Assembly (NCBI GenBank): GCA_963693365.1
Contig: CAVNZM010000003.1
Span: 9,251,019 to 9,315,018, forward strand
DNA from: Amoebidium appalachense
Lineage: Eukaryota > Protista > Ichthyosporea
DNA length: 64,000 nucleotides
Direction: 5' to 3'
Numbering within the stretch: the stretch's first letter is position 1; each line of letters starts with the position of its first letter. The translations under genes and the position numbers were made by a program. The notes below the pieces were generated by a model. That model was not told the DNA's origin and made no database searches. It worked only from the letters and a program-made list of their open reading frames with translations. Of this stretch, positions 18,185 to 21,100 are shown piece by piece.

Positions 18185-21100
18185 GTTGTGGAGAAGGCTC
18201 TCGAATGGGCATGGGGCTCAACCTCCATGCATTTGCCAGCCAAGGAACGAGCACCGAACATCACGCAGTTGATGCAGATTGCTACGGAGCCAGATGCGTG
18301 CACGGTACTTCTCGAGGTGGGTATGTGTGTGTGCATCAGTGTGTGCCCATTCGTTGGTGCGAGCCTGTATGTGTGTAAACTTCGGATTATGGCTGTTGGG
18401 TGGGGTTTTCGAGTGTCGTGTGTGTGTGTGTGCGTGTGTGTGTGTGCGTGTGCGTGTGTGCGTGTGCGCCCGTGCGCGCGTGGGCATGCACGGGTGAGGG
18501 TGTGTAGAAGGTCGTACACATGGTTCTTATATTTGACGTGTCCGTTCGCCCATCCCTTATGTGGTCTTATGAACTCAGGTGTGAGGCTGGAGTGGTTCTG
18601 TTGAGCACACGCTTGGGAGGCTGTAGTTTCCAAGGGGGATTGTTTATTAGCCCAAAACGGACGTGAACGTGCATGCGCCACACAGACAACGCGACATGTG
18701 CATGCGGCATGCACACACACTCAATCACTCACGGCACGTACACGCACACAAACACACAAACACACACACACACACACACACACACACACACACACACACA
18801 CACACACACACACACACACACACACACACACGGGGGCAGATGCGCGCACACACGCCTGTGTAGCGCGAGCGCGTGCGTGTGTGCGCACACACACGTACAC
18901 TCACACGCACACACACACACGTACACTCACACGCGCGCGCACACACACACACACACACACACACACACACACACACACACACACACACACACACACACAC
19001 ACACACACACAAACACACACACACACCGCTGCAGGCTGGTGCGTTACAATTCTTCAAGGAACTGCTGACCGGCAAGCTCCCCAGCCAGCAACCCTACAAG
19101 GATTTTATCACCGTAGCCTTTATCCTTCAGAAAATTCTACAAAAACCCCTGCCTGAAATATTCCGAGGTAGCAGCTGTTGTGGTTGAAATATTGGCAAAA
19201 CGAACAGGAGAGGCTGTCGCAATTTGGCGAAAAAACTCCAAGAATGGGGTTCTGTCTTAGAGCTGGCGAAATTTGGCCTAGAATTCGAAAATACGGACCG
19301 CTGCACAGCAAATACCACCGACTGCCCGCACATGTGGGCCCTCCGGCTCATCGGGACACTGGTAACGAAAGTTGACACCGCAAACCTGTCGTTCGCACCG
19401 GTGTGTCGTGAATTTTTCAAGAAGGGGAGGTTTAAGTTGCTAGATAAATGTCTCCCCCCCCTGCACCCGAAAAGCGCCACTCTCGATATTGACGTGATGG
19501 ATATGTTGCAGATTGTGACTGTTCACGCAGTTTTCCCAAAATCGTCACCCGGCAAAAAAACAAACGCAGAGTCTCTGTTCACATCCATCCCCACCCCCTT
19601 ACTTGCAGTTCTTGCACGAGCAATGAAACAAACCCCAACATACCAGAATCGCGACATCTTTGAAATCTATATTCTCCCCACAGTTATGAGCACGGTCACC
19701 GCATGTCACTTCGATCCCGATTGTAAATGGGATGGATAATGATCCTGGCAGGGTTATTCTTTCACACTGGGCAAAGGTTCAGAGATTGGACACGAAAAAC
19801 GGTGTAGGGGATGCGTGCTATGCTAGAGGCATGAGGTCCCCCCCCCCCCCCCCCCCCCCCCCCCCCCCCCATTTTCCCCTCTGATTACGAATTCTGTGGC
19901 CCTCGGGACTTAATTCTTTTCAGCTGGTGTAGTATGTTAGCCAGGGAAGTATCGACTTAGGTATCGACGGGGGAGCTTCCTAGAAGCCCCGTCTCCTGAG
20001 TTCCTATCTATATTTTTCTTGCTTCTGCTTACTGCTGCAACTTTAACCCCCGGCCTTTCCCACTGCCCTTGCCTGCATAAGCAACCCTGCTCGTCTCTGA
20101 TCAAGACGGGTGACCTACTCATGTTCAAGTGAAACAGTATCTGAGTTGGGTTTCGTTAACGAGGGGAATAGGTCGAAACTCGGGTACTGTGGATGACGTG
20201 GGCCCCCCCTGAGGATGGGCTCTGCTTATTATGCATACTCTTTATGTATGGCTTGCATTCTGCATCGTGTTATCCGTTTGTTCTTGTGTACTTCTGTGTA
20301 CTTCGTACTTTTTGACGCATTCAAAACACCCCCCCCCCCCCCCCCCCCCCCCCCACCACCACCACCACCACCACCACCAAAAAAAAAAAAAAAAAAAAAA
20401 AAAAAAAACGCTCCGGTGTTTCTTGCTCGATTTTCTTGCCTATGGCCTCTGCTAAATTGATTTTTTTTTCTGTTGTCAAAATGGGTGACCCAGTGCTTTT
20501 CTAAGTATCTGAATTGGATTCACATTCATGTAATTGGATTGAAAATTGGGCACTTTTGATCACTTTCCTCTCCTCCTCCCCCCCCCCCCCCCCCTCCCCC
20601 CCCCCCCCGTGCATTGTATTGTTCATGTTGTGATTGTAAACTTCGTATTATGTAATATGTTCTACAACCCCCCCCCCCCCCCCCCCCCCCAACCCCCCAA
20701 TCTCCACTTCACTCTCGTCCAAGTGTGTGTGTGTGTGTGTGTGTGTGTGTGTGTGTGTGTGTGTGTGTGTGTGTGTGTGTGTGTGTGTGTGTGTGTGTGT
20801 GTGTGTGTGTGTGTGTGTGTGTGTGTGTGTGTATCGTGTGTGTGTGTGTGTATGTGTGTGTGTGTGTGTGTGTGTCTATTCATCTATTATTCAGGATCAA
20901 GGTGAGTATTCTTTTGAATGGTAGCAGGTACCTGACTGATAGCTATCTTTGCCTGGTGTACCCTCAGGGAGATAACAATTTGTCATAAAGTAGGGTGATT
21001 CACAGCTGGAAATAGGTAAAGTTTGTTGCTCTCTGGGTGCGTTCCCCACTCTCCCCTCCTTCCTCTTTTGCACGCACATGCACACTTGCGCTCATATATC

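Follow-up and report, generated by a model that had tools for sequence, protein, structure and literature searches.

We find that a dispersed repeat in the genome of the ichthyosporean Amoebidium appalachense (assembly GCA_963693365.1, contig CAVNZM010000003.1) carries all the core letters of the hammerhead ribozyme in a scrambled order. It was studied in 64,000 nt of this contig (positions 9,251,019 to 9,315,018 of the forward strand), hereafter the window, whose first letter is position 1. We consider it likely that the repeat encodes a hammerhead with a split core that acts as a single copy and cuts after position 20147, and that it forms the tail of a Penelope-like retroelement. An earlier note on this DNA had proposed a hammerhead with a new, pseudoknotted strand order, and the corrected reading, in which the core itself is interrupted, is stranger than that order. 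The ribozyme repeat falls into three subfamilies: A, with four full ribozyme copies and two partial ones, B, with two copies, and C, also with two (at 40561, here C1, and at 9121-9265, here C2). A and B are 81% alike, and C1 is 59–62% alike to either.

The RNA is about 155 nt long, and its proposed architecture is given here in the coordinates of the plus-strand A copy. It would begin with the 5′ strand of a closing helix, P0 (20077-20083, pairing with 20223-20229), and an inner CCC (20085-20087, pairing with 20217-20219), followed by a hairpin of 7 bp in A and B (20090-20110) and a single U (20111). The 5′ strand of stem II (20112-20117) would start with G10.1 and pair with 20169-20174, position 20117 being a one-purine linker that also pairs in A. 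The segment 20118-20133 would hold the 5′ strand of a bridging helix (20118-20123), a bulged U, the canonical stem of a kink-turn (20125-20127), its bulge AGU (20128-20130) and a strand of G.A pairs, and the 5′ strand of stem III (20134-20147) would end in U16.1 (20146) and H17, here U (20147), after which the cut is predicted. There follow, in the proposed order, the 3-bp strand of stem I (20148-20150) with a hairpin directly after it (20151-20164), the 3′ strand of stem II ending in C11.1 (20174), the GAAA core (20175-20178) and the 3′ strand of stem III (20169-20190 in all), then the kink-turn GA strand and canonical stem (20191-20196), the 3′ strand of the bridging helix (20197-20202) and the stem I partner (20206-20208). 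The catalytic strand CUGAGGA (C3-A9, 20209-20215) would come next, and the unit would close with a U, the inner GGG and the 3′ strand of P0 (20216-20229). The closing helix and the hairpin before stem II were missed by the earlier note.

The helices differ in sequence and length between subfamilies while the layout is kept. Stem III has 8–13 bp, with 13 bp in A (20134-20146/20178-20190, pair probability 0.76–0.87), and ends in GUU in A, B and C1. Stem II of A is GACCU(A)/(U)AGGUC and runs into CGAAA (20174-20178). Stem I reads GGG/CCC in A and GGAG/CUCC in B, which has the same set of elements, and its third pair is G-C in A and A-U in B; a hairpin follows closely after stem I in all three subfamilies. 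P0 has 8 bp in B (probability 0.89–1.0).

A descriptor made of the order cleavage site, GAAA, CUGANGA together with three stems matched six times in the window (four A and two B, thus two independent subfamilies only) and never in 200 dinucleotide shuffles. All core letters (C3-A9, G12-A15.1, U16.1 and H17) are present in A, B and C1, and the one that varies is N7, which is G in A and B and U in C. The 13 letters of the core motif are all invariant across these copies, whereas of the other 115 positions 57 are (post hoc Fisher p 2e-4, the motif having been chosen after the fact). Stems I, II and III adjoin the core with G10.1-C11.1 and A15.1-U16.1 in place. When the structure was mapped on an alignment of five distinct rows, 90.3% of 176 cells were paired and nine pairs showed two-sided changes, while 4 of 500 shuffles scored as high and slid controls were 33–50% paired; as the structure was derived from the same sequences the controls flatter it, and the automatic alignment placed gaps within stems I and II. 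At the base of stem III, A, B and C1 share a 3-nt bulge, tandem G.A/A.G pairs and a 3-bp canonical stem with two-sided changes. This was judged as a sequence pattern against the kink-turn consensus, which has a canonical stem, a 3-nt bulge ending in U, tandem G.A/A.G and then A.G or U.U. The window's motif has the same pattern as a canonical kink-turn, and it joins two helices of a predicted ribozyme.

Much of what the earlier note had seen is borne out by these results. The strands that it quoted for A, B and C are all found where it placed them, and its statement that strongly diverged copies keep the same pairings agrees with the alignment. Its hammerhead core varying only at N7, its pseudoknotted non-cyclic order on the plus strand, the covariation of stem I and the kink-turn likewise stood up, and GUU closes stem III where it had predicted cleavage, after 20147 in A and after 7644 in B.

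The best independent check of the predicted fold is, in our view, the comparison of C1 with sequencing reads of its own family. Contigs of four runs were aligned on C1, of which three, from different studies, gave cover and one gave none. About 99% of the depth reads G at 40603 (stem III), 40612 (stem I) and 40638 (stem II), and each of these letters turns a mismatch of C1 into a G-C or C-G pair; the fourth mismatch, at 40584 in the basal (bridging) stem, is not among the positions corrected. The imperfect stem I that had been noted in the C copies is thus a private mutation of C1, and three pairs are restored in the family. In C2 the GAAA block has decayed. The loose ends of the contigs show that the upstream segment of A and B is present in family C too. 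With 40696A, its closing helix has another sequence and keeps its pairing (UUGAACA/UGUUCAA as against AUAAGCA/UGCUUAU), the inner change being backed by two runs and the outer changes by one contig.

Two strands are able to pair with the GGUC in front of GAAA: the upstream GACYY (20112-20116) and a downstream GG(G)CUC after CUGANGA (20217-20223). The earlier note assigned stem II to the downstream strand (GGCU/GGUC) and regarded the upstream GACC as a competitor. We think that these roles are most likely reversed, judging from covariation, energies, the spacing of published ribozymes and the Naiad homologues described below. The upstream helix is entirely Watson-Crick, has a G-C pair adjoining GAAA and carries compensatory changes at two positions (GACCU/AGGUC in A, GACCC/GGGUC in B and GACUC/GAGUC in family C with 40638G). 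The downstream strand, on the other hand, is invariant and rich in G-U, shows no two-sided change and forms helices of 4 bp (A) and 6 bp (B). The duplex energies are −8.8 and −10.0 kcal/mol for the upstream helix, and −3.9 and −7.2 kcal/mol for the downstream one. A fold with the upstream stem II is highly probable.

The order GUH, GAAA, CUGANGA was described as new in the earlier note but is that of type SGC, which was validated by cleavage and stem rescue at rates of 0.007–0.19 per minute and found in metatranscriptomes only (Eckert et al., 2023, PMC10085705; cited throughout from the portions of the paper that were available). The published SGC rows have a U, a 5-bp stem II, a purine linker of 1–3 nt and then a helix that pairs with a strand 5′ of stem I. 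The window has the block order S, G, C and the same series, namely U, GACYY, A and then the basal stem, which pairs with a strand immediately 5′ of stem I. From this match we take the basal stem to be the bridging helix between stems I and II, and the upstream strand to be the true stem II. Under that assignment the helix that joins the 5′ side of stem I to the 3′ side of stem II in type SGC is present at 20118-20123/20197-20202, in the position of the published interaction helix. B and three near-identical published SGC rows even have common 7-nt bridging-helix strands, which may be chance. If stem II is formed upstream, the CUGANGA block (block C) is broken between A9 and G10.1; an intact block, with a stem II strand 1–2 nt after CUGANGA, could be made only as a G-U-rich helix of 4–6 bp.

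Rfam gave no match at gathering thresholds in the window, and the cyclic order CUGANGA, GAAA, NUH of hammerhead types I–III is absent. At E up to 10 there were three weak matches, one of which placed the stem II/GAAA part of Hammerhead_1 on 20112-20185 (14.2 bits, below the gathering score of 34). A covariance model search recovered the known copies only. Pattern scans gave 26 metagenome and 33 viral loci, most in coding sequence, and as none of these 59 had the flanking helices by eye, they provide no relatives.

The setting of the copies points to a retroelement. All have one common 3′ end followed by a C-run and many different 5′ starts, nearly always beside a C-run, and partial tandems occur at 7473-7844 and 40272-40948. 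This truncation, the C-run flanks and the tandems are what one expects of a target-primed retroelement that targets C-runs; 5′ truncation, partial tandems and insertion into microsatellites are common to other target-primed elements as well and are not diagnostic of a Penelope-like one. A Penelope-like parent is quite likely, by analogy, because the ribozyme layout and the insertion habit are both shared with elements of that group. In particular, the A repeat at 19872..20325 on the plus strand, which lies between two C-runs, has its fixed 3′ end at CATTCAAA and is 97% identical to 39694-40137, is likely the 5′-truncated tail of such an element.

Craig et al. (2021, PMC8557442; available portions of text and supplement) describe the Naiad and Chlamys groups of Penelope-like elements as lacking canonical hammerheads, with eight "half cores" 35–50 nt apart flagged as "HHR_half_core"; according to the same paper, copies insert at (C)n and (CA)n, are truncated at the 5′ end and occur in partial tandems. 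We judged by eye the last ~520 nt of 15 of the 54 Naiad consensus records (2 found by motif search, 6 flagged as half core and 7 picked regardless of motif; record names rest on the file order matching the supplementary table). The split layout is present in four of these tails, Naiad_Obim, Ovul, Amil and Plae, in unrelated sequence. Each has a 6-bp upstream stem II, a one-letter linker, a bridging helix, stem III, GUA and a 6-bp stem I, the strand immediately after CUGAUGA pairs upstream of the hairpin, and a downstream stem II is lacking, at most 2 bp being possible after CUGAUGA. Naiad_Amil and Naiad_Plae also have, by eye, a hairpin and a U at the same place as the front hairpin of the window. 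The kink-turn differs: the octopus Naiad has its bulge on the opposite strand from the window's, and Amil has an asymmetric loop instead. As to the other tails, Sdum is SGC-like with a damaged core, the Parc record is incomplete in the part available, and nothing clear was seen by eye in six of the 15 within the last ~520 nt. Naiad_Hpol, Naiad-3_Nbra and Naiad_Smim, which are among the "HHR_half_core" records of File S5, appear by eye to be complete, clean type-CSG non-circular hammerheads with block C intact and a long bridging helix between stems I and II; type CSG was previously known, according to the available literature, from two metagenomic sequences only.

Naiads thus share with the window repeat the split layout (in four tails), 5′ truncation, partial tandems and microsatellite insertion, but they are animal elements that prefer (TA)n. 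Chlamys elements share (C)n insertion, AACCCC ends, 5′ truncation, non-animal hosts and non-autonomous derivatives, and differ in the ribozyme: one Chlamys-file tail holds a minimal type I hammerhead, and the split layout was seen in none of the 11 tails viewed. A low-complexity segment of A in front of the ribozyme (20020-20070) looks similar to pyrimidine-rich sequence in the Chlamys-1_cRei, 1_cInc and 3_cSch tails. Non-LTR retrozymes and the pLTR hammerheads of canonical Penelope-like elements (bioRxiv 10.64898/2026.07.22.740005; PMC11167929; available portions) resemble the window in that an abundant retroposed repeat carries a hammerhead close to its end, but these are of cyclic type I, often minimal and in exact tandem units, whereas the window copies are dispersed, variably truncated and non-cyclic.

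In the three-dimensional fold that we infer, stem III and the bridging helix would be continuous through the kink-turn, whose bend would bring the bridging helix alongside stem III; the strands of stem II and CUGANGA could then both be offered to the core from the far end of the bridging helix. With all three links between blocks covalently filled, the ends of the RNA would exit between A9 and G10.1, where published SGC ribozymes bulge out a U, and the closing helix and hairpin would take the place of that bulge. Four helices would hold the two pieces together after the cut; this would favor slow or reversible cleavage and agrees with genomic copies that span the site. We rate measurable cleavage as probable. 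Since the products should remain base-paired, and since copies cover the site with no step in depth, the template for insertion could be uncut or re-joined RNA, by analogy with the Penelope-like element of the anole, which inserts in vitro without any need for cleavage and mainly from uncut RNA. The role of the cut may be to set the ends of transcripts that arise by read-through or from tandem copies, or else to limit the RNA of the element.

A number of observations weigh against a cleaving split-core hammerhead of Penelope-like origin. The nested folding z-scores are unremarkable for A (−0.66) and C2 (+0.19), with B at −2.33 and C1 at −3.57, and the bridging stem of A has a pair probability of at most 0.09 in the pseudoknot-free ensemble, although nested thermodynamic folding cannot show pseudoknots. 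Stem I has only 3–4 bp, and GUU is a slow cleavage triplet. Stem II has a rival in the invariant downstream strand, which can take the same partner (6 bp in B and 4 bp in A), and the insertion of two helices next to A9 may crowd the active site. No step in depth marks the cut site in contigs of family A or C, and no copy in the window begins there. Scans of 138 open reading frames in the window gave no remnant of a reverse transcriptase or GIY-YIG domain, and the copies are shorter than 460 nt. A clean permuted ribozyme was absent from eight of the 15 Naiad tails in their last 520 nt, and the split layout from all 11 Chlamys-file tails (of 49 records; last 520–560 nt). Finally, the available portions of Eckert et al. 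(2023, PMC10085705) report no insertion larger than 1–2 nt next to A9, and none of the papers that we found gives cleavage data for a split-core layout.

There are several other explanations. One is that the repeat is an ordinary type-SGC hammerhead with a switch, in which stem II is formed by the GG(G)CUC after CUGANGA-U and the upstream GACYY is an inhibitor until it is displaced. The downstream strand is indeed invariant in A, B and C, with 4 bp in A and 6 bp in B and family C, and its likeness to the upstream strand is what one would expect of a designed competitor; its 2-nt insertion also falls within the 1–2 nt allowed by Eckert et al. (2023, PMC10085705). Half of its pairs are G-U, however, with no two-sided change and a break after 4 bp in A, and the helix is weaker by 3–5 kcal/mol and would leave the bridging helix without a role. 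The four Naiad homologues have no downstream option, and we consider such a switch improbable. About equally improbable, perhaps marginally less so, is a fold that is real but holds no working nuclease, a hammerhead-derived binding or priming site for the reverse transcriptase of the element or for a kink-turn protein. The GUU site in all subfamilies, the 3-bp stem I, the split core, the copies that span the site without a depth step and the anole precedent would all suit it, but every catalytic letter is kept with variation at N7 only, and the GUA and 6-bp stem I of the Naiad homologues look like selection for cutting.

Cooperation between two copies, with CUGANGA and stem I supplied by a second molecule or a tandem neighbor as in the dimeric minimal hammerheads of Penelope-like elements, is very unlikely. 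Partial tandems exist (7473-7844 and 40272-40948) and type I retroelement hammerheads often act as dimers, but all helices close within one unit, stem III with its 8–13 bp is not the short helix that forces dimers, and isolated copies (20075, 34933) are complete. The earlier note had left it open whether CUGANGA folds back or comes from a second copy; folding back suffices. Slightly less likely still is a SECIS-like or box C/D-like kink-turn RNA with an accidental likeness to a hammerhead. The SECIS core consensus is RUGAN/NGAN with an apical AAR, and A does have GUGAA/GGAU under its 13-bp helix. Some Naiads moreover carry SECIS elements (PMC8557442, available portions). B and C, on the other hand, have UUGA rather than RUGA, the 5′ side of the loop lacks an AAR, and no SECIS or snoRNA model matched at Rfam gathering, only sR47 appearing at E 7. 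Nor would such an RNA account for three hammerhead stems that meet the core letters exactly, in an arrangement the descriptor never matched in 200 shuffles.

We therefore prefer the split-core hammerhead, and it differs from type SGC (HRIMA-1 and the SGC variants; PMC10085705, available portions) in that the 5′ strand of stem II is located upstream and that a closing helix and a hairpin interrupt block C between A9 and G10.1. Stem III and the bridging helix form one kinked helix, a hairpin sits between stems I and II, the RNA has ~155 nt as against up to 104, and it lies in a eukaryotic genomic repeat rather than in metatranscriptomes; cleavage is predicted here, whereas that of type SGC was demonstrated. 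Eckert et al. (2023) assumed CUGANGA and its stem II strand to be inseparable beyond 1–2 nt and saw no larger insertion, and core insertions of only 1–2 nt are also what the available portions of Perreault (2011), de la Pena (2017) and Forgia (2023) describe. In the literature searched, with subscription papers outside the search, "type-SGC" led to Eckert et al. (2023) alone, and no paper was found that combines hammerhead, k-turn, retrotransposon and permutation, that names a break between "A9 and G10.1", or that links hammerhead, Penelope and Euglena. The available portions of the literature from 2022 onward on hammerheads of Naiad and other Penelope-like elements make no mention of permuted ribozymes. 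The split-core hammerhead is accordingly outside the six published permutations and absent from the literature searched, while its block order is already published. Hammerhead variants with added helices were reportedly described by Weinberg in 2015.

If the split core is real, it contradicts the rule stated by Eckert et al. (2023, PMC10085705, available portions) that nothing may interrupt block C, and non-circular permutations, hitherto a matter of uncultured RNA replicons, would be present in high copy number in the genomes of eukaryotes. It also makes directly testable why Naiad and Chlamys seem to be without the hammerhead of other Penelope-like elements. To this the window adds a family that targets C-runs, a non-animal host and a kink-turn kept across three subfamilies, and its competing downstream strand allows the two stem II models to be tested in one RNA. 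We point out that standard descriptors and Rfam miss this layout, so that such ribozymes are probably undercounted, and that the entry of helices next to A9 would offer a new handle for ribozyme switches. We give an even chance to the fullest picture: an active hammerhead outside the six published permutations, with two helices entering the core between A9 and G10.1 and a kink-turn closing the ring, which would be the missing ribozyme of Penelope-like elements with an N-terminal endonuclease from coral and octopus to a non-animal host, the kink-turn maybe letting an L7Ae-family protein switch cleavage on.

The remaining A ribozyme copies lie on the plus strand at 39899..40051 (in repeat 39694-40137), 40302..40454 (in repeat 40272-40540, the first of a cluster of A, C and partial A) and 54201..54353 (in repeat 54089-54439), all matched by the descriptor, and two 5′-truncated copies begin within stem II (54658..54805) and within stem III (40816..40948). 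The intact B ribozyme occupies 7571..7731 (+), its repeat extending to 7844, and a second, 99% identical copy, also matched by the descriptor, is at 34773..34933 on the minus strand with its cut predicted at 34860. C1 (40566..40795, +) is 5′-truncated inside the front hairpin, has private mutations at 40603, 40612, 40638 and 40696 and a predicted cut after 40611; C2, with the decayed GAAA block, spans 9129..9367 (+). Short, decayed 3′ remnants of these families, most adjoining C-runs, are found at 2430-2500, 12611-12688, 31347-31372 (−), 39437-39667 and 7473-7544. In one sequencing run 5,565 contigs align on A and 1,684 on C1, which is not a copy number; the depth on A climbs toward the 3′ end with its maximum at CUGANGA, and one contig reaches 389 nt further 5′. 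Loose ends of contigs at 20111, and letters between 20115 and 20212, reveal further subfamilies: in one, the kink-turn strand is the same but the stem III behind it differs, and in another the stem III side is much shorter.

The host DNA of the window is eukaryotic, with abundant C-runs and GT/CA repeats and scattered genes, and C-runs precede 3′ splice sites in the host genome. An apparent exon with CAG/GT borders (54455-54640, +) lies between two A copies, which would place repeats in introns. The genes include a piggyBac-like transposase, whose frame (1-1356, −; DDE_Tnp_1_7, E 1e-40) is open and runs off the window edge, and an F-box followed by a leucine-rich-repeat region together with two MYND-finger pieces (13880-15957, 4378-5733 and 24446-24655, all +); the nearest relatives of the leucine-rich-repeat protein are only 27–29% identical. 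That the proteins of the window have so little identity to known ones may point to a lineage that has been sparsely sampled. A BT1 folate-biopterin transporter frame (63093-63998, +), whose exon had no relative at E 0.001 among longer proteins, has one in-frame TGA at 63480-63482 with coding-like sequence on either side, and may be a pseudogene, a sequencing error or a case of TGA read as tryptophan. Finally, an identical 145-nt stretch at 20409-20553 and 21863-22007, each time directly after (CCA)n and an A-run, is a candidate for a second small mobile or duplicated element.

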